DNA of 64,000 nt from Candidatus Saccharimonadia bacterium (GTDB lineage: Bacteria; Patescibacteriota; Saccharimonadia; UBA4664; SCTI01): NCBI GenBank assembly GCA_046597065.1, contig JBKJLI010000003.1, positions 72,219 through 136,218 of the forward strand, in the 5' to 3' direction. Shown here in pieces: positions 2,946 through 45,045 of this stretch. Position 1 is the stretch's first letter; each line of letters begins with the position of its first letter. Under the pieces are notes generated by a model. The model ran no database searches, was not told where the DNA came from, and saw nothing but the letters and a program-made list of their open reading frames with translations. The position numbers and the translations under genes are program-made.

Positions 2946-5627
2946 TTAATCTGGTTTGAGGGCCCCATATGCATCTATTTTGTTTTCTACGTAGTACTTG
3001 TTAGTATCAAATCTTTCAAGTGCATCCTTTGCCTCGACTTGTTCGGCTGGAGTCAATCCACCCCCGGCTAGTTTTGCAGCAAGTGCTGCTCTGGTTGCTT
3101 GACCCTGTGCCCCGGTAAAAGCCTCACGGAATGCAATTCTACCGGCAGCGGAGGTTTTATCAGCCCTAACGCCCGTCAGGGCTTTCTCTACAGTAGTTGT
3201 ATCAAGATGAAGTATGGAGCCACCATCAATGCTCCATTTGCTATCGGCCCTGGCAGCCTCGCCAGGGTTCCCTCCGAAAGTACGAGCAACTGATCCGCCA
3301 TCGGCCAGCTGCTTAGCCAAACTTTCGCCGTTGGTTCTAGCTATAACACCACTTTGTACTTTGCCCTTAGCATCAAGACCACCGAATGCAACGGCAGGAT
3401 CCGACCCGAATAAATCGCCCGCATCAGTAGTTCCAAGCGAAAATACCTCTTCTGATGCTAATCGCTGTCGGCTCCCAGCCGGTGCTTTATCTAGCGCCAA
3501 TCTAACAGCTTCCACGCTGCTACCCTTACCATCTTGGGCTAATGTCCTCAGTGCAGCTGCTTGACCGTGTGTTGATCCAGCGTAGTGTGCAAGATGAGCA
3601 ACATTATCATTGGGATTATCTTTAGCGTATTGCTTTAAGCCTGCACTACCCATTGCAATTGCCTCTAGTAATTTGGGATTGGTAACACCAAGATCTTTTA
3701 GTTCTTTTTGTTGATCTTGAGTTAATTTCTGAGCGCTTCTTTGCTGCTCCAACTTATTTGATGTACCGGCACCAACTGCGAAACCGGCAACTCCACCAAG
3801 AGTGCCTCTAGCCACGCGTGAAGCAATATTAGTTCCACCAAGACCAGGAGTTTTATCTAGTTTGTCATTTAGCCACTGCCGTCGGCCGAGACGGCTGGAG
3901 TCTCTGTTTTGATTCATTCGCTGGTAGGCACCTGAATCTTTGAACTTGCCTTGTGAGGCTTTTCCAGCCGGGTTTGATATTCGATTAACCAAACCCGATG
4001 TAGCATTCATAACACCACCGGCCCACTTAAAGGTCCATGGAACCAAGAAGAATGCAATTATTGGGTAAAGCCCACTAACAATGGTTTGAATTGAACCACT
4101 AAACGCCGACCCACCACCGCTTGGCCTGGAAGCCGCCGCCAAAATAGTCGCCATTGAAAATATAATTACAATAAGAGGGTACATTAATATGACTCTGGTT
4201 AAAGTTTTCCACCAGGTTTTAAAGATATTTTCTGTCCCTGGCAATACCCAAGCTGCGAATGCTAGCGGAGAAAAGATAATTAATACGCTGATAATTAGTT
4301 TTCGTAACACTAAGGTAACGACAACTGATATAACACCAAAGAATGCACCAATTGCGAATAGCAGTATGGTCGGTGCCCCAACAACCCAGATAGCAACAGC
4401 GGCGAGTGCCCCTATACCTAAAATTGCACCAAGGGCGTCGCCAAGGAATGAAAAGATATTGCCGGCACTATTATCTCCAACTTTTGGCACGGCAACCTTA
4501 ACCAGTTCCTGGATGCCACCACCAAGAATATTGCCTATATCAATTAAGAGCGCACAGACCAAGAATGAAGCTTGTACTAAGATAGCTGCGGCCACCAGAC
4601 GGGGCAGCATTTTTTTAATAGTGTAAGCATTAACGTTGAACGACAACATATTTGCAATAAGGATATAAAGGAATATCAAGACAAAGGTAATATCTGCCAA
4701 AATAAGCATATTACCCCAGATTTTATATAGGCTATCCCCTAAGCTGTTTTGGCCGGTAACTATAAGTGGCTGATATTTAAGTTCATCGATAACTAGCCCT
4801 TTAAACAAAGCATTTGCCGTGTTAGATAGTAGCTCTACTGCAGGACAAAGCACCCATGCCAATTTACCGGCGCTTTGGTCGCAAGGGTCGTTATCGCCAC
4901 CACCACCACCGTTTCCGCTAGTATCGGTTTGATCGGCAATTTTGGTGCCATTAATTTCTTTTGAAGTCTGTGGGGTTGGCCAGGTGCCCTTAGCACTGCT
5001 AGATAGTTTGGTGTAGTTAGCAAGCTGTATTGTTTGAGATCCTTTGCGCAGATTTTGAGGGATACAACTAAGTGGTAGATCGCCATAATATTTGTTGCCA
5101 CCACTTTCGGGAGCACCGGCGGATTGTGGCCAATAAGCCTCAAAATAGTTAACTGTGCCGGATAAGTTTTTTACGTCGGCTAGGTCGGGCGGCCCGGCAA
5201 AGTATTTAACCGCAATTTTTAAATAGATATGGTAAATTTTGGCGCCACCGGCGGCCACAATCTTGTTGTTTGAGCTGTCGCAGTAGTAGTCGCCATAGTA
5301 GCTGACCGTACGGCTACCTGCGGATGGAGTTTGAAAATCGTCGGCATTAGAGCCGGCGGCAAAGGTTACCGGTGCGCTGTTATTGATCTTGGCATACACC
5401 GTGGTGTACTGCATGCCATCTGTAAAGTCTGATAAAGCGCTACTGCCAGTGGTAACCGATTTTTTGATTTCAGCCATGTGGGCTGGGTCCATGTAGACGA
5501 TGTAGGAGTCACCGGCGGCATGTGCAGCAGGAGTCAGGCCTATAATCACGGCGGGCGCAATCGACCAAAACAGCATAACGGCTGCAGCAATAATTGATGG
5601 CGGATTCGCCCACCTCTTCATAAGCAT
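2946..5627 (-). CDS. VirB6/TrbL-like polytopic membrane protein, tandem paralog
   Basis: TM core aligns closely with the upstream paralog (KKMLPRLVAAAILVQASFLVCALLIDIGNILGGG; LIISVLIIFSPLAFAAWVLPGTENIFKTWWKTL). Start chosen at MLMKRW (signal-peptide-like) rather than the ORF-track ATG at 5657. Gly-rich and Cys-containing ectodomain; long low-complexity C-terminal tail. Confidence 0.55.
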   Translation of the reverse strand: MLMKRWANPPSIIAAAVMLFWSIAPAVIIGLTPAAHAAGDSYIVYMDPAHMAEIKKSVTTGSSALSDFTDGMQYTTVYAKINNSAPVTFAAGSNADDFQTPSAGSRTVSYYGDYYCDSSNNKIVAAGGAKIYHIYLKIAVKYFAGPPDLADVKNLSGTVNYFEAYWPQSAGAPESGGNKYYGDLPLSCIPQNLRKGSQTIQLANYTKLSSSAKGTWPTPQTSKEINGTKIADQTDTSGNGGGGGDNDPCDQSAGKLAWVLCPAVELLSNTANALFKGLVIDELKYQPLIVTGQNSLGDSLYKIWGNMLILADITFVLIFLYILIANMLSFNVNAYTIKKMLPRLVAAAILVQASFLVCALLIDIGNILGGGIQELVKVAVPKVGDNSAGNIFSFLGDALGAILGIGALAAVAIWVVGAPTILLFAIGAFFGVISVVVTLVLRKLIISVLIIFSPLAFAAWVLPGTENIFKTWWKTLTRVILMYPLIVIIFSMATILAAASRPSGGGSAFSGSIQTIVSGLYPIIAFFLVPWTFKWAGGVMNATSGLVNRISNPAGKASQGKFKDSGAYQRMNQNRDSSRLGRRQWLNDKLDKTPGLGGTNIASRVARGTLGGVAGFAVGAGTSNKLEQQRSAQKLTQDQQKELKDLGVTNPKLLEAIAMGSAGLKQYAKDNPNDNVAHLAHYAGSTHGQAAALRTLAQDGKGSSVEAVRLALDKAPAGSRQRLASEEVFSLGTTDAGDLFGSDPAVAFGGLDAKGKVQSGVIARTNGESLAKQLADGGSVARTFGGNPGEAARADSKWSIDGGSILHLDTTTVEKALTGVRADKTSAAGRIAFREAFTGAQGQATRAALAAKLAGGGLTPAEQVEAKDALERFDTNKYYVENKIDAYGALKPD

Positions 5628-6413: not shown

Positions 6414-6730
6414 TGATTGGCGCCAAGCTTGCAGCCGACCTACAGGGTTGTACCGGCCCCAACTGCGTTGATACCCCAGACCATATTAATCTTATAAGCA
6501 ACGTATCATTGGGTAGTGGTGCTACCGGCATCATTAACGTCATGACCTTAATAGCCATTGTGGTGGCAACCATATTTTTAATGATTGCCGGTATCAGGTT
6601 TGTGACCGGCGGCAGTAATGCCCAACAAATTGCTGGTGCTCGTAACACCATTACTTATGCAATTATTGGCATGATTGTGGCGATTCTAGCCCGCATTATT
6701 GTTGGGTTTATCTTACAAAACAGTCCCTAA
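6413..6730 (+). CDS. Pilin-like two-TM protein, paralog 3
   Basis: Module AGIRFVTGGSNAQQIAGARNTITYAIIGMIVAIL. Cys pair CTGPNC in the variable N-terminus. TAATG overlap with the upstream gene. Confidence 0.6.
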   Translation: MIGAKLAADLQGCTGPNCVDTPDHINLISNVSLGSGATGIINVMTLIAIVVATIFLMIAGIRFVTGGSNAQQIAGARNTITYAIIGMIVAILARIIVGFILQNSP

Positions 6731-6760
6731 GCTTTACACACTCCTGGAGCTTCAGATACA

Positions 6761-7183
6761 ATGCAGGCAATGAAAGCAGTTATGTTCAGGCAGGCGGCGG
6801 TAACCATGTTGATGCTAACGCTCGGCCTTTTTGCAGCACCGCTAGCCTTTGCCGATCAAAGCGGTAAGATCAGCCAACCAGCTTGTAAAGCTGCAGCCGA
6901 TGCCGGTCAGGCCGCTCCACCAGGTTGTAACGGCACTACTCTTGAAAGTACGGGTACAACCACCGGATACTTAGATGTATTAATGAACGCCTTGGTGTTT
7001 GTTGGCGCCGCCACGGCCGTTATCTTTATAATAGTCGGTGGAATTCGTTTTATGACTGCAACCGGCGACCCCGGCCGTATCAAGCAGGCAAAAGATACTG
7101 TGCTTTACGCCGTGCTAGGCTTAGTGGTGCTATTATTAGTGCGCTTTATTATCGCCTTTGTGGTTGGTAGTGTTAAGGTATAG
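6761..7183 (+). CDS. Pilin-like two-TM protein, paralog 4
   Basis: Signal peptide. Cys pair PACK...PPGCNG. Module GGIRFMTATGDPGRIKQAKDTVLYAVLGLVVLL. Confidence 0.6.
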   Translation: MQAMKAVMFRQAAVTMLMLTLGLFAAPLAFADQSGKISQPACKAAADAGQAAPPGCNGTTLESTGTTTGYLDVLMNALVFVGAATAVIFIIVGGIRFMTATGDPGRIKQAKDTVLYAVLGLVVLLLVRFIIAFVVGSVKV

Positions 7184-22751: not shown

Positions 22752-24413
22752 ATGGCAAAGCGAATTATTGCAGATGGTGAGGCTCGAAAGCGAGTGCTAG
22801 AAGGAGCCGAAGAACTTTATAACGCCGTGCGCGTGACAATGGGTCCTAAGGGTAGAAACGTAGTGATTGGTAAAAGTTATGGTGGGCCCAGCGTTACTCA
22901 TGATGGTGTAACCGTGGCCAAGGCGGTTGATGTTGCTCAGAATAAAGACGATGCCACACTGGGACGAGGCGTCGGTGCAGAGCTGGTAAAGCAGGCTGCT
23001 AGTAAAACCGGCGACGAGGTTGGTGATGGTACTACGACCGCCACCGTTCTGACCTACCACATTCTGGCCGAGGCTAACCGCATGATCGAGGCCGGGCACA
23101 ATCCGATGGACTTAAAGAAGGGTCTAGATGAGGCCGCCCAAGAAACCATCGCCAAAATTGATGGTTTAAGCGAAAAGATTGCTGGCAAAAAAGATAAGAT
23201 CGCCCAGGTTGCCACCATTTCGGCTGGCGACCAAGAAATCGGCGAGTTGATCGCCGATGTGATCGAAGCCGTGGGCGAAGAGGGTAGTGTAACCGTAGAA
23301 CAATCACAGACCCTAGGTCTTGAAAAAGAGGTGGTTGAGGGCTTTAAGATTGACCGCGGTTACGTTAGCCCTTACATGGTTACCGATACCGCACGTATGG
23401 AGGCGGTTTATGACAAGCCGGCCATTCTTTTAACCAATAAAAAGATCTCTAGTATTCAAGAGATTCTTCCCGTTCTGGAGCAGTTGGCCCAGGCTGGTAA
23501 AAAAGAGCTGGTAATTGTAGCCGAAGATGTAGAGGGTGAGGCCTTGGCCACCTTAATTCTTAACCGACTTAAGGGAGTGTTTAACGCACTGGCCATTAAG
23601 GCTCCAAGCTTTGGCGATCGCCGCCAAGCCATTTTAGAGGATATTGCCATCCTCACCGGAGCTACCATAATTAGTGAGGATCAAGGCACCAGTTTTGAAA
23701 CTGCCACACTAGATATGCTTGGTAGTGCCCGCAAGATTATCGCCACCAAGGATGAAGCCACAATTATCGAGGGCGGCGGTCAGACCGCCGAGGTCGAGGC
23801 CCGGATTGTCCAAATTAAGGCTCAAATAGAAAACGCTAGTAGCGAGTTCGAAAAAGAGAAGTCAGAAGAGCGATTAGCCGCTCTGGCCGGAAAGGTTGCC
23901 GTTATTAAGGTTGGTGGCGCTACCGAAACCGAGATTGAAGAAAAGAAGTACCGGGTAGATGATGCCGTGGCCGCCACCAAGGCCGCCGTGGCTGAAGGCA
24001 TTGTGCCTGGCGGAGGAGTAACTCTTGTAGATCTTAGTAAAGACATCGATATCCATGCCACCAAGGTTGGAACCAGTGCTGATGCCGGCAAGCTAATTTT
24101 AAAAAACGCTTTGGTACAACCGTTCAAGCAGTTGATGCATAACGCTGGGTTAAACCCCGAGGAAAAGCTGGCCAAGGTTCTAGATGCCGGTACGCCCGGT
24201 TACGGCTTTAACGTCAACAGCCCCGAACGGCTAATCGATCTTAAGGCCGAGGGTGTGGTAGACCCGGCTAAGGTTACGCGCGAGGCCGTTCAAAATGCTG
24301 TTAGTATCGCCGGAACGGCTATGACCATGGGTGCGTTGATCGTTGATATTCCAGAAGACAAACCGTCTGCTACTGGGGGCATGCCGGGTGGTGATATGGG
24401 TGGGATGTACTAG
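22752..24413 (+). CDS. groEL: Chaperonin GroEL
   Basis: 553 aa, including the ATP-binding GDGTTTATVL and C-terminal GGMPGGDMGGMY. Confidence 0.95.
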   Translation: MAKRIIADGEARKRVLEGAEELYNAVRVTMGPKGRNVVIGKSYGGPSVTHDGVTVAKAVDVAQNKDDATLGRGVGAELVKQAASKTGDEVGDGTTTATVLTYHILAEANRMIEAGHNPMDLKKGLDEAAQETIAKIDGLSEKIAGKKDKIAQVATISAGDQEIGELIADVIEAVGEEGSVTVEQSQTLGLEKEVVEGFKIDRGYVSPYMVTDTARMEAVYDKPAILLTNKKISSIQEILPVLEQLAQAGKKELVIVAEDVEGEALATLILNRLKGVFNALAIKAPSFGDRRQAILEDIAILTGATIISEDQGTSFETATLDMLGSARKIIATKDEATIIEGGGQTAEVEARIVQIKAQIENASSEFEKEKSEERLAALAGKVAVIKVGGATETEIEEKKYRVDDAVAATKAAVAEGIVPGGGVTLVDLSKDIDIHATKVGTSADAGKLILKNALVQPFKQLMHNAGLNPEEKLAKVLDAGTPGYGFNVNSPERLIDLKAEGVVDPAKVTREAVQNAVSIAGTAMTMGALIVDIPEDKPSATGGMPGGDMGGMY

Positions 24414-24428
24414 TTCTGTAGAAAGTTG

Positions 24429-24457
24429 TTGACACTACTGACAAAAAGCGGTAGTAT
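24429..24457 (+). promoter_or_regulatory. Sigma70-like promoter (TTGACA-17-TAGTAT) immediately after groEL
   Basis: Consensus -35 hexamer at 24429-24434 and -10 TAGTAT at 24452-24457 with a 17-nt spacer. Confidence 0.55.
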
Positions 24458-24464
24458 TCCTGAC

Positions 24465-25123
24465 TATGAGTTGTGGCCAATGCCAAGGCACTAGTTACGA
24501 CCCAACTTTGACAATCTGCAGAAACCTCACCTATTACAGTCGGCTTCAAACCCACTTTGCGGCCGTCTGTAATAGGTGAGAACGGAGGCATCCAGCTCTT
24601 TATAGGCTCGGCGAAAGCCCGGTTTCATGCACCTGAAGGTCTATCCCCCCGGTTGATAACCATTGGATATGACACAGGCCAGAGAGCTCTCACCTCGGAA
24701 GCGCACGGAGACAGTCCCGCAAGTAATCAAATACTAAACGGGGAACCGTCCCCCATGTGCGCTTCCAAAACTTCAACCCACCCACGCTCAGGAGAAGGTC
24801 CAATGTCGTAGCAACGCAATCCTGCTGAGAACTTACTTAGCAGATCCTGCAACTTCGACTGCATGGGGGTACCATGGAAAGGTCTCGGCCTCCGCCGGTA
24901 GTTTAGCCGCAAGGTCGGCTCCTCAAGCATCCAAAAGTTTTAACTGATCTCAGCCAAGCTCGGGGGGTCCGAGTGCGTTGAGCCGCGAGAGTTCGTTTGA
25001 ATATGCCGACGTTCGGGGGACCGTCGGTGTTGGGTCCAAGGGATTCAAGCGTTCGCTCGCGGCTCCGCCGCTCCACATTTCTGCAGATTGCCATAACCAC
25101 GAGACCCACCCGGGTCTTTTTTG
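24465..25123 (+). ncRNA. Unassigned roughly 650-nt GC-rich structured transcript (promoter to terminator); candidate large non-coding RNA
   Basis: Bounded by a consensus promoter and the terminator AGACCCACCCGGGTCTTTTTT (25102-25123). About 57% GC versus about 48% backbone. Many hairpins (12-bp CACCTATTACAG...CTGTAATAGGTG at 24528-24580; GGCGAAAGCC GNRA hairpin; GCGCAC...GTGCGC). No ORF with coding character in any frame. Confidence 0.4.
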
Positions 25124-25145
25124 ATTTAAAACCATCGATTTTTGT

Positions 25146-25174
25146 TTGACAAATATGACTAAAAAAGTAATATT
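25146..25174 (+). promoter_or_regulatory. Second sigma70-like promoter (TTGACA-16-TAATAT)
   Basis: TTGACA at 25146-25151; TAATAT at 25168-25173. Confidence 0.5.
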
Positions 25175-25341
25175 TAGAACCATACAGTTGTGAGGTTATA
25201 CAAGTTTGTAACTGTTTTACGTTGAAAAGTTAGAAAGCAATCTACTCCGTGAGACTAGCGCCAATGCAGTATTGACGTTATTCCCACGGAGTAGTGTCAG
25301 CTGCTCCGGCAATTTGCTGTTCCCGACAAGGAGAGTGATCC

Positions 25342-25461
25342 ATGACGTTCATCATGCACGACCACGACATCGGCCGCCGCGAGCGGGGCCACAGAACGCT
25401 TTGCATCGACGACGCGCTCACCACCGACACCGCGACGATCACCGGCCTCCCGGCCGGATAG
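25342..25461 (+). CDS. Candidate 39-aa small ORF inside a GC-rich transcript (MTFIMHDHDIGRRERGHRTLCIDDALTTDTATITGLPAG)
   Basis: AAGGAGAG Shine-Dalgarno 7 nt upstream of the ATG. Preceded by a roughly 160-nt structured leader and followed by about 300 nt of GC-rich sequence ending in the terminator at 25758-25789. Not in the ORF track because it is under 60 aa. Confidence 0.3.
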   Translation: MTFIMHDHDIGRRERGHRTLCIDDALTTDTATITGLPAG

Positions 25462-25757
25462 CCGCTCTGCCGGCGACGGCCGCCGCATAGGCGAGCTTGA
25501 CCATCCTGGGAGGCCCGGGGTAGTCAAGACGCCATGTGGCGTTACATAGCTGCCAACATAGTTCTTAACCAAGAACGCTCTGCGGGGCTACCGTGAGATA
25601 AGGCCTTTGGGCTACCGCTTACCTCTGGCTCCCAGCGCACCGAGCGGGTTCGGCCGCGGAACATACTGCAGTTCGCTTGATGTTACCTCTTCCTGGTTAC
25701 CTCTCTTGCAACACGCACTGTTCCGCGGCCACCGCCATGCTTTCTACTTTTTTACGA

Positions 25758-25789
25758 TCGCCCCCTACCAAGGGGGTTTTTGTTTTTTA
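25758..25789 (+). terminator. Rho-independent terminator
   Basis: CGCCCCCTACCAAGGGGGTTTTTGTTTTTT. Confidence 0.7.
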
Positions 25790-25839
25790 TAGCGGTATTT
25801 TTATGCCGTCTTGTACAATAGCCCTTACCAAGGAGCCCA

Positions 25840-26316
25840 ATGCTAGACGACCTCAACTATATTGCCCAGTTTGATAACAGCAACGCCCTGGCTGTAGCTG
25901 GGGGCTTGGCTGAGTCATCAAAAGAATCTGTGTGGTTGGGCCCAAGGATAGGTTTGTTTAAGCTTGCAGTACCCGAGTTAGATAATCCAGCCAAACAGCT
26001 AGCCAAGCAGCTTGTTGGTCATAGAGTGCAAGTTAAATCGGATGATCATTTTAGGGGTGTCGCGGTTGAGTGGAACACTAAGTTTAACCAATGGCGAGTA
26101 CTTAAATGGGCATCGACAAAGACAATTGCCATTACAAGTGGTAGGTCTGATGTCGAATCCGAAACTGTTAATATCGTAGTCGTAATGCCCAAGGGAACCA
26201 TGCAGCAGCAAGCCATTTGGCTAGAGGTTTTGGGCCAATTCGTCTTTGTTTATCTGGCGATATTAAACCAAACCGATCCTTCGGCACCAAAATTTCAACT
26301 TAATGCTATAAAATAA
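25840..26316 (+). CDS. Hypothetical protein
   Basis: 158-aa ORF with AAGGAG upstream. No recognisable motif. Confidence 0.45.
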   Translation: MLDDLNYIAQFDNSNALAVAGGLAESSKESVWLGPRIGLFKLAVPELDNPAKQLAKQLVGHRVQVKSDDHFRGVAVEWNTKFNQWRVLKWASTKTIAITSGRSDVESETVNIVVVMPKGTMQQQAIWLEVLGQFVFVYLAILNQTDPSAPKFQLNAIK

Positions 26317-39545: not shown

Positions 39546-39727
39546 CCACGGCAGATCCCCCTTATGCTTTCTATCCATATCGTTTTAGCTTAAAATACTC
39601 GGGGCGGAACTCAGGTGCCGCCTTTGGTTTATTACGTTCGTTGACATATCCAGGCCGGATTATTGCTTTAAGGGTGATTAGCGGTAATCCGGTCTGGAAC
39701 AGACCCTTACAAAAGGAGGGATGCCAA

Positions 39728-40636
39728 GTGCATCTTGCCACTACACTGGCTGGCGTCGAGCTTGAGCATCCGCTCATGAATGCTGCTGGCACCTGCAAGA
39801 CCCTGGAGGACGTCGAGAAGCTCGCTAGGTCAAGCATTTCGGCCATTGTGGTCGGTTCCATCACCCTCGCATCCCGGATGGGGAACGAGGGGAATGTTTT
39901 CTGGCCTGGTCCGATCTACTCGCAGAACTCTCTCGGGATGCCCAATCGTGGGCGTGACTACTACCAGGACACTCTCCCGCGAATGGTCGAGGTAGCTCAT
40001 GGTGCTGGCAAGGCTCTGATCCTCAACGTCGCTGGCTTTAGCCATATCGAATATGGCGAGCTGGCAGCGCTGGCGCACGAAGCCGGGGTTGACATCATCG
40101 AGCTCAACCTCGGCTGTCCGAATGTGTGGGACGACGGTCAGCAGAAAAAGATCGCCTCGTTCGACCCATTCGGTATCGCAGCCATCATGGCTGAGGTCGA
40201 GCGCAAGGTTCCTGACGATCGACCGGTTGGTGTGAAGCTCTCGCCCTATTCCGATCCCGGGATGCTGGCGGAAGTTGCGGATACCATCAAGGATCTCCCG
40301 ATCCGGTACGTCGCCACCTGCAACACTTTCCCGAACTCGCTGGTTCTCGACGAGAATGGCAAGTCGGTGATCGACGTTGGACTGGCTGGGCTGAGTGGCC
40401 CTGCCATGAAGCCCGTCGGTCTCGGTCAGGTTAAGCAGTTGCGACAGCTTCTGCCGGACTCGGTCGAGCTCGTGGGCGTCGGCGGTATCACAAAAGGCCG
40501 CGACGTCTGGGAGTACCAGCAGGTCGGAGCTTCAGCCGTCCAGGTGGCTACGGCCTACTGGAACAGCAACGAAAACCCCGGCGTCTTCGGGGACATCCTG
40601 TCGGATTACATCGACCAGTTCCCCGAGGAGGGCTGA
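39728..40636 (+). CDS. pyrD: Dihydroorotate dehydrogenase (class 1-like), GC-rich
   Basis: GTG start 7 nt after AAAGGAGGG. ELNLGCPN motif, a GVGGI phosphate-binding loop, and an N-terminal NAAG. About 62% GC. Confidence 0.8.
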   Translation: MHLATTLAGVELEHPLMNAAGTCKTLEDVEKLARSSISAIVVGSITLASRMGNEGNVFWPGPIYSQNSLGMPNRGRDYYQDTLPRMVEVAHGAGKALILNVAGFSHIEYGELAALAHEAGVDIIELNLGCPNVWDDGQQKKIASFDPFGIAAIMAEVERKVPDDRPVGVKLSPYSDPGMLAEVADTIKDLPIRYVATCNTFPNSLVLDENGKSVIDVGLAGLSGPAMKPVGLGQVKQLRQLLPDSVELVGVGGITKGRDVWEYQQVGASAVQVATAYWNSNENPGVFGDILSDYIDQFPEEG

Positions 40637-40637
40637 C

Positions 40638-41381
40638 ATGAGCACCATCACCGATCCCATCGAGCGGATAATCTGGAGTGCGGACGTGGCTGACGAGGAA
40701 GCCTTGATGGCTGCACTCGACCGAATGCCAGATCTCCGAGTCATCAAGATCGACCGCCTGTTCGTGACCGAAGTCGGTCTGGGCGTCATCGATCGGCTGG
40801 CCGAGCGTGGGCTGCTGGTCTTCGACGACGCCAAGATCATCGAGATTCCCTCGAAGGTTGTCGGCATCGCCAAGAAGCACCTGGTACACCGACCGTTCAT
40901 GCTCAACTGCATGGCGGGTGCTCAGTCCAGTGGCCTCCTGACGCACGAAGACCCGGAGAAGGTCGACGGGCTCAAGCGGTTCGCCGATGTCTGCCTCGAA
41001 GCTGGCACCAAGCCCTGTGCAGTCACGGTGCTGACCAGCAAGACAGCAGACGTCGTCGGTAGCGAGTTCAACGGCCGAGACAGCATGGAGCAAGTGCTCT
41101 ACTACGTCGAGGCGTTGCTCGAGTGCGGCTTCACTGACGTGGTCTGCTCCCCAAAGGAGCTTCCCGCAATTCGGGCTGAGAGTCGCTTTGACGGCCTCGA
41201 CCTGAACACACCGGGAATTCGCCCGGCGGGTTCTGACGCTGGAGACCAAGCCAGGGCCGACACTCCCGAAGGGGCACTGGCGGCTGGAGCAACTCGGCTC
41301 GTCATCGGCCGACCCATCACGACCGGTGATCCGGCCGAGAACCTCAAGAACATCGTCGCCAGCATCACCGCTGAGGCCTGA
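40638..41381 (+). CDS. pyrF: Orotidine 5'-phosphate decarboxylase
   Basis: DDAKIIEIP (DxKxxDIP) catalytic motif and the C-terminal LVIGRPI. GC-rich. Confidence 0.75.
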   Translation: MSTITDPIERIIWSADVADEEALMAALDRMPDLRVIKIDRLFVTEVGLGVIDRLAERGLLVFDDAKIIEIPSKVVGIAKKHLVHRPFMLNCMAGAQSSGLLTHEDPEKVDGLKRFADVCLEAGTKPCAVTVLTSKTADVVGSEFNGRDSMEQVLYYVEALLECGFTDVVCSPKELPAIRAESRFDGLDLNTPGIRPAGSDAGDQARADTPEGALAAGATRLVIGRPITTGDPAENLKNIVASITAEA

Positions 41382-41395
41382 CCAAGGAGATCAAG

Positions 41396-42034
41396 TTGGA
41401 CGTCCTGAAAGAACTCGACCAAGCAGGTGCTGTTCTGCTCGATCAGCACTTCGTCTACAAGAGCAAGAAGCATGGGTCTGGCTACATCAACATGGACCCG
41501 CTTTTTCCCGACGTGGGGCTGGTCTCGTCGCTGTGTGCGTTGCTGGTACGACCGTTCGAGGGCGACTTCGACACGGTCGCTAGCCCGGCAACCGGTGGCG
41601 TGGTGCTTGCGTTCGCCAGTGCCATGCAGACGCCTGGTACACGGCCGGCCGCGGTTTGGGCAGACAAGGACGGGGATGAGTTCCGCTTCGAGTGAGCAGG
41701 CTTCACCGACCACCTCAAGGGCAAGCGTGTCCTGGTGGTCGAGGATCTGCTCACGACAGGCGGTTCGGTGCTCAAGGTCTGCCGAGAAGCGGAGAAGCAC
41801 GGTGCCGAGATCATCGGTGTCAGCGTCATCTGCAACCGAGGTGGCGTTACCGCCGAACAGCTCGGCGTCCCGCGACTGGAAGCACTCGCCAGCGTCAGCT
41901 TTGCGGCTGTCGATCCCGGCGAGTGTGAGCTGTGCAAGAACAACGTTCCCATCGTCGAGGACATCGGTCATGGCGAAAGCTACAAGGCCGAGCACCCCGA
42001 CTACGAGGGTGGCTACATCAAGCTGCTCTCCTGA
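41396..42034 (+). pseudogene. pyrE: Orotate phosphoribosyltransferase-like gene interrupted by a single in-frame TGA at 41693-41695
   Basis: The ORFs 41396-41695 and 41735-42034 are in the same frame and separated only by a TGA (...DEFRFE*AGFTDHLKGKRVLVVEDLLTTGGS...). The PRTase motif VLVVEDLLTTGGS lies downstream of the stop. Confidence 0.6.
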
Positions 42035-42323
42035 ACACCTAGCAGTAGGTGGGCAGCCAAGTTCTGGAGCTAATCCAGGGCTTGGCGCTCAACCCAAGAT
42101 TTTAAGCCATTAAAGTTTTAGGCTGAGTCAATAAGTAGAGCTTGACAGCGTAAGCGTTTAGTAGTATAATACCCAAGTATTTTGACAATATGCTATTACT
42201 CCCCTTGAGAGCGGCGCTCTGCAACCAAGTGTTTGGTATCAGTGTGCCGCTCTCAGCCCCCGCTGAGACCACGATGCGCATACCGCGCAAGCGTGGACGA
42301 ACACCGGCACAGGAGGATTTGTC

Positions 42324-43136
42324 ATGGGAACCAAGGCAACCCGCGAGGAGCTCGGTGACCTCGGCGTCGTGTACGCCAGGTTGTTCGAGTTCGTCAAGAA
42401 CGGCAAGAGGCCAGCAGGGCTCGTCATTGCAGGGATGCAGCGACTGGCCGATGGTCAGTTCCCGGAGAACACGCGGTTCGACCGCTACAACCACCTGCTG
42501 CTGTCCCTGGACGACCAGTTGGAGCGCCTACGGCGTTACAACACGAAGTACTGGGACAGCCGCCTGACCGATGAGCAGCTCGCTGCCGTCGACACGTCCG
42601 GTGATCTCACCCAGCGGGTCGACGACCTCACAGCCTTTCACGTCCAGTTCGACTCCCTCGAGGAGACGGTCGAGATGTGGTGGCGCGTGTACGTCGGCGA
42701 GCAGCCCAAGCAGTGGCGCTGGGACGAGCTCAAGCTCGACTCGGAGCACCTGCGGCTTCTCACTTCCAACGTCCGCCAGTACGAACCCGGTATCCATCGG
42801 ATCCGGATCGACCTGGTGGCTCACTGGGAGCCCGAGGACGGGCGCACGCTCGAGGAAGTCCGTGAGGGCGCCAAGGGCACCAGCGAGATTCTCGCTCAGC
42901 TCGAGGTCCTCTCGGCCTACGGTCTGCACTCGGAGCTTTTCCGGGAGCAGGACGGCGAGAACCTGCCGTATTCGGACATGCCCGGTACCGACGTGTCGGT
43001 TCCCGGCCGCTCCGGGCCGTGCGCTCTGTGCGTGGGCTGGTCCCCGTTCGCCCTCGAGGCCGGGCTGAACGCCGGCTGGGTCAGCCGCCGCAGCCACAAG
43101 TGGGCGGCGCCGGTGCTCAGGGAGTTGCAGAGCTAG
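42324..43136 (+). CDS. DGR target protein; its C-terminal 41 codons are the variable repeat
   Basis: 270 aa, GC-rich. The C-terminus (...CALCVGWSPFALEAGLNAGWVSRRSHKWAAPVLRELQS) lies within VR. No signal peptide. Confidence 0.75.
   Translation: MGTKATREELGDLGVVYARLFEFVKNGKRPAGLVIAGMQRLADGQFPENTRFDRYNHLLLSLDDQLERLRRYNTKYWDSRLTDEQLAAVDTSGDLTQRVDDLTAFHVQFDSLEETVEMWWRVYVGEQPKQWRWDELKLDSEHLRLLTSNVRQYEPGIHRIRIDLVAHWEPEDGRTLEEVREGAKGTSEILAQLEVLSAYGLHSELFREQDGENLPYSDMPGTDVSVPGRSGPCALCVGWSPFALEAGLNAGWVSRRSHKWAAPVLRELQS
42999..43123 (+). repeat. DGR variable repeat (VR), 125 bp
   Basis: Identical to TR (43501-43625) except at 21 positions, all of which are adenines in TR (A to G, C or T in VR). Followed by GC-rich hairpins (CTAGGACTTCGGTCCCTAG). 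Confidence 0.9.
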
Positions 43137-43500
43137 GACTTCGGTCCCTAGGGGCTTGGAGGGCCTTGGACTTCGTTCCTTGGCCCTCCGCCCCGCAGGG
43201 GCGCAAATTCAATTTTTTACGCAAGTAGATACATTGGAGAAGCGCCCCTTCTTCATGCCCAAAATTTGCTATAATCATATCTGGAAAGTAGGCTAATGAA
43301 TCCGACTTTACGGAGTCTGGGTCGCCGAAATCTCTCGTAGTCGCAGAAACTACCAGAGTTTTGGTCACTAGGGTGGCTGAAAGTGTGTAGGCGATTAACC
43401 GAGCACTCCGTGCTCCTTGCTTGAGACAGTTAAGTCTCGCATTAAATACAGGGTTTGGATACGTCCGGGCCCAGTGGATCACAAGGCAAGTAGCGCAATT

Positions 43501-43625
43501 GTTCCCGGCAACTCCAAGCCGTACGCTCTGTACGTGAACTGGAACCCGTTCAACCTCAAGGCCAAGCTGAACGCCAACTGGGTCAGCAACCGCAACAACA
43601 AGTGGGCGGCGCCGGTGCTCAGGGA
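43501..43625 (+). repeat. DGR template repeat (TR), 125 bp, rich in AAC codons
   Basis: Same frame as VR. Codons AAC/AAG sit at every diversified position. The 85-aa ORF 43417-43674 in the track is this repeat, not a gene. Confidence 0.9.
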
Positions 43626-43668
43626 CTGCTCGAATAACAGGGAGGGTGAGATACCACTCCCTGTTTTG

Positions 43669-44058
43669 TTATAGCGATTTTAGCCAGCCACCCAACATAC
43701 GGCCAATTTCATGGAGTTGAGACTCAAGAGCCAGATAGGTCTTGTTGTCGATGCATTTGCAGTCTTTGCTGAGTCGAACCATTAGCCGCAGTAGATCGAG
43801 TTTAGTTGAGGCTACGCTTAACCGCTCCTTTTTGGTTTCCGGTTTAGCAGTACTTGCCGCAGTAACAACCGCTTCCATCAGATCAAGCAGTTCGGTCTGC
43901 ATGGCTGAGCCTAACGAGTAGCGTTGGGATTTTGGAAACTTTAATAGCAATTCATGGAGAGCTTTATACAGCTGATACAGCGAATGGACAATAGGGATAT
44001 CAATCAAACCCCCACTCAACTTAGCTTGGACTTTACTACTGGCATTGGAACTAGTCAT
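43669..44058 (-). CDS. avd: DGR accessory variability determinant (Avd-like four-helix-bundle protein)
   Basis: 129 aa. ...LYKALHELLLKFPKSQRYSLGSAMQTELLDLMEAVVTAA matches the Avd/23S-IVS four-helix-bundle family core. AAGGAGG Shine-Dalgarno. Confidence 0.7.
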   Translation of the reverse strand: MTSSNASSKVQAKLSGGLIDIPIVHSLYQLYKALHELLLKFPKSQRYSLGSAMQTELLDLMEAVVTAASTAKPETKKERLSVASTKLDLLRLMVRLSKDCKCIDNKTYLALESQLHEIGRMLGGWLKSL

Positions 44059-45045
44059 GAAACCTCCTTATTATCGTCATTTGATTACATTTGTTCTATT
44101 ACAAGCCTTTTTCAGGCATGGAGCAAGTTTAGCCGGGGGAAGCGCTCAAAACTGGATGTCTTATGTTATGAGCGATCGCTAGAGGAGAACATCTTCGAAC
44201 TGCAGGAGCAGCTGGTAGGAGGTAAATTTAAACATGGCCCATATGTGCCATTTACCATTTGCGATCCAAAAACGCGCCGAATCCACAAGGCTACCGTCCA
44301 AGACCGCTTAGTTCATCAGGCACTGGTTAGTGCCATTGAGCCACTATTCGAACGCCAGTTTATTTATGACAGCTATTCCTGCCGCAAGAATAAGGGTACC
44401 CACGCAGCAGTAAGACGATTGCGAACCTTCTTACGACAAGCTAGTCATAACGACACCCAGACGGTGTACGCCCTCAAATGTGATGTGAAGCAGTTCTTTG
44501 CCTCGGTCGATCACGAGATTCTGGTGAATTTGCTGAAGCAGAAGGTTGATGATCCAGATACACTCAAGCTATTACTTTTGATAATTGATAGCCTATCCAC
44601 TTGCCCTGGCAAAGGCATCCCACTTGGTAACCTCACCAGCCAGCTTTTTGCTAATATTTACTTGCATGAGTTCGATTGGTTTGTGAAGAATCGAATACGT
44701 GAGAAGCATTATCTGCGCTATTGCGATGATTTTATTATTCTCAGCACTAACCGGCAGCATTTACTGGAATTAATTGAGCCAATTACTCGGTTTCTGAGCG
44801 ATCGGCTAGCGCTCACAGTCCACCCAAATAAGATCACAATTCGCAGCTGGGGTCAGGGTATCGACTTCTTGGGCTATGTTCTCAAGCCCCAATGTATCGT
44901 TCTGCGCCACAAGACGAAGCTACGAACGCTCAAACGGGTGGATAGCAACAATCTGACGTCTTACGTTGGGTTGTGCTCTCACGCCGACGCATATGAGCTG
45001 AGCCAGCTTATTACAATAAAGGCATTAACCAAGCAGGAGGATTAG
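44026..45045 (+). CDS. DGR reverse transcriptase
   Basis: Aligns with BPP-1 bRT from the N-terminal LFQAWSKFSRGKR. RT motifs include IPLGNLTSQLFANIYL (the DGR-specific [IL]GxxxSQ) and YCDDFIIL (YxDD). The start is uncertain: TTG at 44026 is proposed, the ORF-track ATG at 43954 would overlap avd. Confidence 0.85.
   Translation: MDFTTGIGTSHETSLLSSFDYICSITSLFQAWSKFSRGKRSKLDVLCYERSLEENIFELQEQLVGGKFKHGPYVPFTICDPKTRRIHKATVQDRLVHQALVSAIEPLFERQFIYDSYSCRKNKGTHAAVRRLRTFLRQASHNDTQTVYALKCDVKQFFASVDHEILVNLLKQKVDDPDTLKLLLLIIDSLSTCPGKGIPLGNLTSQLFANIYLHEFDWFVKNRIREKHYLRYCDDFIILSTNRQHLLELIEPITRFLSDRLALTVHPNKITIRSWGQGIDFLGYVLKPQCIVLRHKTKLRTLKRVDSNNLTSYVGLCSHADAYELSQLITIKALTKQED

Follow-up and report, generated by a model that had tools for sequence, protein, structure and literature searches.

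Gene arrangement and transcription signals

The window, i.e., the whole 64-kb stretch of DNA that was analysed, carries the chaperonin gene groEL at positions 22752-24413. Directly 3' of groEL lies a transcription unit on the + strand, designated u1 (24429-25124), whose transcript would comprise approximately 660 nt. The predicted promoter (24429-24457, + strand) consists of the -35 sequence TTGACA, a 17-nt spacer and the -10 sequence TAGTAT, and begins 15 nt past the groEL stop at 24413. The predicted intrinsic terminator (25101-25124, + strand) is formed by a GC stem at 25101-25118, which is followed by TTTTTT. Both signals had already been proposed in a first-pass annotation of this DNA, and both were recovered here. 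The annotation had also put the GC content at approximately 57%; u1 is indeed GC-rich, with 54.4% for the transcript (24460-25125) and 56% for the interior compared to 50.4% for the whole window, but the exact figure was slightly too high. The long perfect hairpins it had listed, including a GGC-GAAA-GCC hairpin, are found at 24526-24580, 24610-24619 and 24980-25065, and the fold of u1 has a minimum free energy (MFE) of -267 kcal/mol with a z-score of -10.45 relative to dinucleotide shuffles. Three features were absent from that description, namely a long-range helix between 24509-24524 and 25078-25093, a second unit at 25146-25783, and an SD site with an AUG-UCG-UAG mini-ORF at 24790-24811.

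The longest ORF of u1 encodes 84 amino acids and starts with TTG. No Pfam match was obtained for any u1 ORF or in any frame, and no 3-nt periodicity was detected in u1 or in its orthologue at the related locus L082. Indels between these two sequences have lengths that are mostly not multiples of three, thereby breaking the reading frame, and the earlier view that the unit is non-coding in all frames thus holds. u1 is a genuine RNA gene.

Synteny and phylogenetic range

Among the GTDB species representatives, the best GroEL matches belong to the Saccharimonadia (TM7), with identities of at most 78%. GroEL homologues that are 79-93% identical served as anchors for the comparison of the groEL-downstream regions of relatives, which comprised the loci L082, L083/L084, L085, L086/L087, L088, L089, L090 and L128; a further locus, L117, was found by a pattern scan of metagenome contigs. 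In each anchor locus and in L117, 780-1330 nt devoid of genes separate groEL from pgi and contain one unit, and such a unit is present in L082, L083, L085, L086, L088, L089, L090, L117 and L128. The window differs from its relatives in that it contains two units in tandem, u1 and u2. L082, whose GroEL is 93% identical, carries the orthologue of u1, which is the sole true orthologue of the u1 interior found, and the 5' part of u2 has matches in L083 and L085. Using a profile of the 5' module shared by the units, diverged copies were identified in L002 and L003, the latter being located one gene further on, with another gene between groEL and the unit. Among the close relatives compared, whose GroEL proteins are 75-93% identical, the unit is missing only from L127.

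The 5' module profile detected no copy in the other 78 GTDB Saccharibacteria groEL loci, and nhmmer and BLAST searches with the unit gave no sequence match in 80 GTDB Saccharibacteria groEL loci. Scanning metagenome contigs for the 5' module pattern yielded 34 matches, of which only the syntenic L117 is real; two chance matches were obtained in viral contigs. The module has no other site in the 64-kb window or in the related loci, BLAST of positions 24414-25839 against the window returned self matches only, with nothing in u1 or u2 being repeated, and BLAST against phage and plasmid collections gave no match. The family is confined to one Saccharibacteria clade, and u1 and u2 are tandem paralogues.

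Several observations were made on the neighbourhood of the units. Positions 25840-26316 of the window contain an internally deleted and decayed pgi remnant, at a place where relatives have a 340-aa SIS/PGI gene. Compared with the 340-aa PGI of L082, the remnant agrees over residues 1-22, has lost the N-terminal SIS domain and shows just 29% identity in its remaining part, though the GroEL proteins of the two are 93% identical. An IS200-type Y1 transposase gene (PF01797) lies directly upstream of groES in L082 (64-657) and in L128 (1555-2148). In L003, a small ORF at 6685-6850 lies between the gene proximal to groEL and the RNA unit; it has an SD site and a terminator of its own as well as an H-x3-C-x2-C motif, and its codons mostly end in G or C, as judged by eye.

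The position behind groEL could also be read in another way, namely that the unit is a long structured 3' UTR of groESL, which stabilises the chaperonin mRNA, and that the promoter is incidental. The interval between groEL and the unit promoter (24414-24428 in the window) contains no terminator in the window and in L082, so groESL read-through into u1 is possible, and the hairpin-rich 3' region closes with the sole terminator after groEL. However, a clear groEL terminator is present upstream of the unit promoter in L089, L128, L090 and L002, and the sequence and spacing of the -35 and -10 elements are kept in nearly all members. In addition, a different gene parts groEL from the unit in L003, and u2 lies past the u1 terminator and has a promoter of its own. 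We therefore consider a 3' UTR function quite improbable.

A conserved frame with covarying helices

All members share a frame in which the elements occur in the same order: promoter, 5' hairpin (HP5), the motif YUUUGACAA, the leader strand of the helix P0, the hairpin P1, the interior, the P0 trailer strand and the terminator. The promoter follows the pattern TTGAC-N5-TRAC...TAnnAT, of which TTGAC-N5-TRAC is kept in nearly all members. In u1, HP5 (24467-24504, + strand) is a hairpin near the transcription start that begins with AUGAGUUGUGG; in the family, it usually begins with AUA-AGUUGUG. It is followed by the boxA-like motif CUUUGACAA (24506-24514, + strand), which overlaps the start of the P0 leader strand. 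P0 is a long-range closing helix formed by a 5' (leader) strand at 24509-24524 and a 3' (trailer) strand at 25078-25093, both on the + strand. It comprises 16-20 bp across the family and closes the whole molecule, with the trailer strand positioned just before the terminator, and its duplex energy ranges from -20 to -32 kcal/mol in 10 members. P1 (24526-24580, + strand) is a 25-bp hairpin with a 14-bp perfect lower stem; hairpins of 20-28 bp, though unrelated in sequence, occupy this position directly inside P0 in 11 of the 12 members.

Covariation was analysed in an alignment of the "mini-frames" of 12 members. RNAalifold recovered HP5, P0 and P1 from this alignment unguided, with compensatory change in 36 of 44 pairs. 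Changes on both sides were found in six of the 10 pairs of HP5 (helix 1), in 12 of the 16 pairs of P0 and in all 18 pairs of P1. Overall, 90.7% of the cells are paired, and the number of double-change cells is 131, compared to 22-36 in the slid controls. A covariation score of 0.71 was obtained, while sliding the partners gave 0.11-0.15, and none of 500 shuffles reached the observed values. G-U pairs are numerous in HP5, P0 and P1, and C exceeds G in all 13 interiors, which together identify the + strand as the RNA strand.

The interior of u1

When the MFE structure of u1 was compared with L082, 38 pairs were changed on both sides and yet remained paired, whereas slid controls gave 4-10 such pairs and shuffles 20 +/- 3; P1 contributes 12 double changes in 23 pairs. 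The predicted pairing common to u1 and L082 is well supported for HP5, P0, P1, a branched domain, the base of the last hairpin and the terminator (helix 30 in this comparison).

The branched domain (24585-24696, + strand) holds the GGC-GAAA-GCC hairpin (24610-24619), and its pairing is kept in L082 (helices 5-12). It is followed by a hairpin at 24697-24766 (+ strand) with a 10-bp perfect base, GGAAGCGCAC / GUGCGCUUCC, whose helices 13-17 are partly kept in L082. The next segment (24767-24818, + strand) consists of a CA-rich linker, an SD-like AGGAG (24790-24794) and the conserved block GGUCCAAUGUCGUAGCAACGCA (24797-24818, + strand), which contains AUG UCG UAG at 24803-24811. u1 and L082 have few sequence islands in common, the clearest of which is GGUCCAAUGUCGUAGCA(A/G)CGCA at the position of this block (24797-24818); a complementary site for the block GGUCCAAUGUCGUAGCA was not found in the window. 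In the variable middle (24819-24970, + strand), the predicted helices 18-27 are unsupported by the two-sequence alignment of u1 and L082. The last long hairpin (24971-25077, + strand) comprises 23 bp with arms at 24980-25002 and 25043-25065; its conserved base, AGCCGCGAGAG / CUCUCGCGGC, is supported by the comparison with L082 and is followed by a CCGCCGC element.

Two ideas on the action of the interior were discarded: a CCAAUG loop motif that might form kissing loops is not general, and GGA motifs, which would be expected of a CsrA sponge, did not look enriched by eye.

The second unit and the small ORFs

The tandem paralogue u2 (25146-25783, + strand) has the same frame as u1, with a promoter at 25146-25174, HP5 at 25184-25215, P0 formed by 25220-25239 and 25737-25756, P1 at 25242-25294 and a terminator at 25760-25777, which is followed by a U run (all on the + strand). 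Its fold has a z-score of -7.9. The interior of u2 carries an ORF of 39 codons (25342-25461, + strand) with an SD site and a GC3 of 0.93.

ORFs of 33-80 codons behind an AAGGAG-type SD site are found in eight of the 13 members, namely u2, L083, L085, L086, L089, L090, L117 and L128. The ORF of L003 has five codons, and L088 possesses an SD site but no start codon. In u1 and L082, the SD is followed only by AUG-UCG-UAG, i.e., an ORF of two codons, and no hidden decayed NNS ORF was found in either of them. ORF lengths in the family consequently range from 2 to 80 codons. The GC3 of the small ORFs is 0.84-0.96, compared to 0.40-0.57 for genes of the window genome, and the third codon position is C in 0.65 and G in 0.29 of the codons. 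The encoded peptides are hardly conserved, except for N- and C-terminal motifs common to L089, L117 and L128. Between the ORFs of L089 and L117, the three codon positions diverge equally (19, 18 and 19 differences), and five codons differ synonymously as opposed to 32 non-synonymously, yet GC3 stays at 0.95. A word-indexed search of the peptides against 5.8 billion clustered proteins returned only the queries, an exhaustive HMMER search of 1.8 billion representatives gave only weak matches to long repetitive proteins, and a Pfam search of the small peptides found nothing. The notion that the ORFs represent captured pieces of host genes is unsupported, as the peptides have no outside homologues. 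Since the peptides drift without homologues while GC3 stays at approximately 0.95, the ORFs appear to be constrained to remain an NNS reading frame and not to keep a particular protein.

These ORFs raise the question of whether the family simply encodes a small, fast-evolving protein on an mRNA with very structured UTRs, in which case u1 would be a degenerating duplicate without a function of its own. The strong SD sites and ORFs of 33-80 codons in most members, the terminal peptide motifs of L089, L117 and L128, and the occurrence of the u1 type in only two genomes would fit such a role. However, L082 contains only the ORF-less type, and it nevertheless keeps the frame and shares the 38 compensatory pairs with u1; the function of the family can therefore not need a peptide. 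Likewise, u1 cannot act via a peptide because its ORF is just AUG-UCG-UAG. The five-codon ORF of L003, the lack of an ORF in L088, the orphan nature of the peptides and the even divergence of the codon positions with an excess of non-synonymous differences also argue against a conserved protein, and an mRNA of this kind seems unlikely to us.

Hypervariability of the interior

The interiors of the family comprise 500-1000 nt and are GC-rich, contain more C than G, are full of hairpins and can barely be aligned. The extent of this variability becomes apparent in the comparison of the unit regions of L117 (4985-5875) and L128 (4408-5166). The flanks of these two units are 94.6% (groES-groEL and 5' frame) and 97.0% (3' frame and pgi) identical, but no similarity was detectable between two interior segments of L128, 353 nt and 130 nt in length, and the corresponding segments of L117, which comprise 459 nt and 138 nt; the stretch between the two dissimilar segments is 84% identical. 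This pattern implies that the interior is either replaced in segments or evolves far faster than its surroundings.

Such a hot spot might be a non-autonomous mobile or palindromic element (MITE, REP or BIME) or captured high-GC DNA, with P0 representing terminal repeats. Inverted repeats of 16-20 bp indeed surround the variable interior, segments are exchanged between L117 and L128 within flanks that are 95-97% identical, Y1 transposase genes are found beside groES in L082 and L128, and the high GC3 of the ORFs resembles that of a high-GC island elsewhere in the window. However, no second copy of any part exists in the 64-kb window or in approximately 90 related loci, the one further copy obtained in the metagenome pattern scan is syntenic, and phage and plasmid collections gave no BLAST match. 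Moreover, P0, P1 and HP5 contain G-U pairs, the strand bias of C over G is consistent, and conservation extends to the elements outside the repeat, i.e., the promoter, hairpin and terminator. Captured DNA is at odds with ORF peptides that lack outside homologues. Little probability can thus be given to a mobile or captured element, and a dispersed REP, BIME or MITE was dismissed for want of dispersed copies in the window and the related loci.

Comparison with known RNA families

A search of u1 (24300-25350) against the 4227 families of Rfam 15 gave no match, neither at the gathering score nor at E<=10, and in particular no signal of RNase P, tmRNA, SRP or 6S RNA. At the gathering score, cmscan of the whole window detected only five tRNAs, all of which are located elsewhere, and the u2 region (25100-25900) gave noise only at E<=10. 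ARAGORN found no tmRNA in 24000-26000 or in seven related loci. Across seven related loci, the only Rfam match was tRNA-like and lies inside L088, where positions 5199-5269 of the unit interior form a complete tRNA-like cloverleaf with a score of 45 bits against the Rfam tRNA model; ARAGORN assigns it to Val with the anticodon AAC, the anticodon loop is atypical, and CCA is absent. Literature searches revealed no description of an RNA of the u1 type.

The first-pass annotation had found no resemblance to tmRNA, RNase P, SRP, 6S RNA or a group II intron, which agrees with the Rfam search at E<=10 and with ARAGORN. It had recommended a search with Rfam cmscan, in which no family was matched, and an alignment of orthologous groEL-downstream regions, which revealed strong covariation. 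Of the two interpretations it had offered, a lineage-specific large ncRNA gains support from the absence of an Rfam family, from syntenic homologues that occur only in a Saccharibacteria clade and from covariation, while a diverged housekeeping RNA with insertions conflicts with the unrelated interiors of the tandem paralogues, the hypervariability between close strains and the missing signal at E<=10. Protein-coding homologues in relatives had been named as an observation that would speak against an RNA; most members do carry an ORF of 33-80 codons, but u1 and L082 have none, and the peptide is not conserved.

The view that the unit derives from a protein-coding gene by decay, or from a housekeeping RNA (RNase P, tmRNA, SRP or 6S) by divergence, can hardly be upheld. 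GC-rich, ORF-less DNA beside a decayed pgi gene would fit this view, but no frame matches Pfam, the indels relative to L082 break the reading frame, compensatory substitutions are present, no housekeeping RNA is matched in Rfam even at E<=10, and the two paralogues have unrelated interiors. The Pfam, Rfam, indel and compensatory-change results already refute this explanation to a large extent. The units represent a new, clade-specific family of large structured RNAs with a conserved frame and a hypervariable interior.

Several known RNAs resemble the family in part. The large RNAs OLE, GOLLD, ROOL, raiA and HEARO are similar to u1 in their size of approximately 600 nt, their many helices, their own transcription signals and their narrow phylogenetic range; however, their covariance models do not match u1, and they have a core with many invariant nucleotides, whereas only the frame is kept in the present family and the interior is barely alignable. 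tmRNA differs from u1, which ends in a plain helix and a terminator instead of a CCA-bearing tRNA-like domain, and its tag ORF has no SD site or AUG, both of which are present in the ORFs of the family. RNAIII of S. aureus is a highly structured dual-function RNA of approximately 500 nt with 5'-3' pairing and a small ORF. It shares long-range end pairing and the small ORF with the present family, but is homologous to it neither in sequence nor in structure. In the family, neither the length nor the sequence of the ORF is conserved, the ORF being reduced to start-stop in u1, and no target-binding loops were identified. The hok-type type I toxin mRNAs are stable structured RNAs with a 5'-3' fold-back and a small ORF, i.e., they share with the family both the pairing between distant ends and the small ORF. 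A hok-like type I toxin-antitoxin system was nevertheless rejected: the peptides are hydrophilic, rich in Gly, Thr, Asp and Pro and not membrane toxins, no antisense RNA gene is evident, and u1 and L082 hold just a two-codon ORF.

The boxA-like motif and the resemblance to rRNA operons

YUUUGACAA is kept in 10-12 of the 12 members, its unpaired UUU being conserved in all 12, and the bases of the 3' strand that pair with its GAC are less conserved than the motif. It is therefore constrained as a sequence and not just as one half of a helix. The variants of u2, GUUGAAAAG, and L002, CAUUGACAC, deviate. The boxA of the E. coli rrn operons is UGCUCUUUAACAA, which is also written CUCUUUAACAA and occurs in the context CAC-UGCUCUUUAACAAUUUA (PMC2724277), and the gamma-proteobacterial boxA consensus is GYTCTTTAANA (PMC5725501). 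The motif CUCUUUGACAA of L117 and L128 agrees with the E. coli boxA at 10 of 11 positions, being one base off, and the u1 motif AACUUUGACAA at 8 of 11. The likeness was noticed after the fact and relates to the boxA of E. coli and gamma-proteobacteria.

In rrn operons, the promoter is followed by a boxB hairpin, boxA and boxC, the last of which lies in the 5' strand of the leader-trailer helix (PMC10250234). This helix covaries and is the RNase III site, more than 17 bp are essential, and NusB bound to boxA is thought to keep the leader close to the RNA exit until synthesis of the trailer (PMC10250234). The present family has the same arrangement of promoter, hairpin, CUUU(A/G)ACAA motif and 5' helix strand, with the 3' strand just past the payload, and HP5 occupies the position of boxB. 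The helix covaries in both cases, and the motif is near-invariant here. With 16-20 bp and 12 of 16 pairs changed on both sides, P0 compares well with a covarying leader-trailer helix of more than approximately 17 bp; the enterobacterial rrn helix, however, is longer (25-40 bp). There are further differences: the payload of an rrn operon is rRNA, whereas the present units carry a hypervariable RNA of 500-1000 nt in its place, in many cases including a small ORF; boxA of rrn operons is located 18-19 nt upstream of boxC, whereas the boxA-like motif overlaps the leader strand; and the present unit ends in its own terminator, unlike the rrn payload. No rRNA genes were found in the window or in any related locus compared, and a scan of viral contigs for TM7 16S signatures gave nothing.

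By analogy, u1 is best explained as a stable RNA gene of a clade-confined family, which is expressed from an rRNA-like leader-trailer cassette, and we regard this explanation as on balance probable. The frame would act like the leader and trailer of a pre-rRNA. The boxA-like motif behind the hairpin would recruit NusB/NusE, thereby rendering RNA polymerase Rho-resistant on the long, untranslated, C-rich transcript, and would also retain the leader strand up to the appearance of the trailer. Both ends would be clamped by the duplex that the two strands form, which is a likely substrate of RNase III; cleavage by this enzyme could release a very stable and abundant RNA. This RNA would expose a single ribosome-binding site, and the active principle of u1 would be either the loading of ribosomes onto the start-stop site or the RNA as such. 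The frame makes functional sense for a long untranslated RNA with more C than G, as it would make transcription Rho-resistant, assist long-range pairing, protect the ends and allow processing. This leader-trailer model does not account for the NNS codon pattern of the small ORFs.

Cultivated Saccharibacteria are obligate epibionts that live on high-GC Actinobacteria. More speculatively, and with only a slim chance of being right, the rRNA-operon-like shell may have been repurposed for the mass production of a segment-swapped RNA or mini-peptide payload, which serves as a host-interaction factor in an arms race. The payload would then be, e.g., an RNA or mRNA acting in or on the host cell, and the ORFs would keep the NNS pattern with a GC3 of approximately 0.95 that is typical of high-GC Actinobacteria while the peptide drifts freely. 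As the locus is hypervariable and shows a host-like codon pattern, it may bear on how this obligate epibiont interacts with its host.

Patescibacteria (CPR) account for a large share of bacterial diversity; to our knowledge, their non-coding RNAs are almost wholly uncharacterised. The family described here adds a new large RNA whose frame covariation is unusually clear. ORF lengths of 2, 5 and 33-80 codons together with the tandem paralogues constitute a natural experiment on whether translation or the RNA is the function. Saccharibacteria are now genetically tractable, and the conserved frame could serve as a cassette for the expression of stable RNAs in these bacteria. The family might also be the first use of the rRNA design of antitermination and leader-trailer processing for a non-ribosomal RNA; surveys of boxA explicitly left non-coding RNAs aside (PMC5725501).

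Other features of the window

A high-GC island spans approximately 39650-43200, with a GC content of 0.59-0.70 compared to 0.50 for the window, and possibly stems from a high-GC donor. Its genes include a pyrD-like gene (DHO_dh, 39641-40636), a pyrF-like gene (OMPdecase, 40638-41381) and the target gene of a textbook diversity-generating retroelement (DGR), which is located at 42324-45045. The DGR target ORF (42324-43136) encodes 270 amino acids without a Pfam match and contains the variable repeat at 43000-43130. The template repeat lies at 43502-43627, and every mismatch between the repeats falls on a template adenine; the reverse transcriptase (PF00078) is encoded at 43954-45045. A consensus promoter, TTGACA-17-TATAAT, is found at 42143-42171. 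Nine nt later, it is followed by UUUUGACAAUAUG, a boxA-like motif of the form YUUUGACAA, and behind the promoter and motif (42143-42192) lie a long hairpin and then the high-GC DGR target gene.
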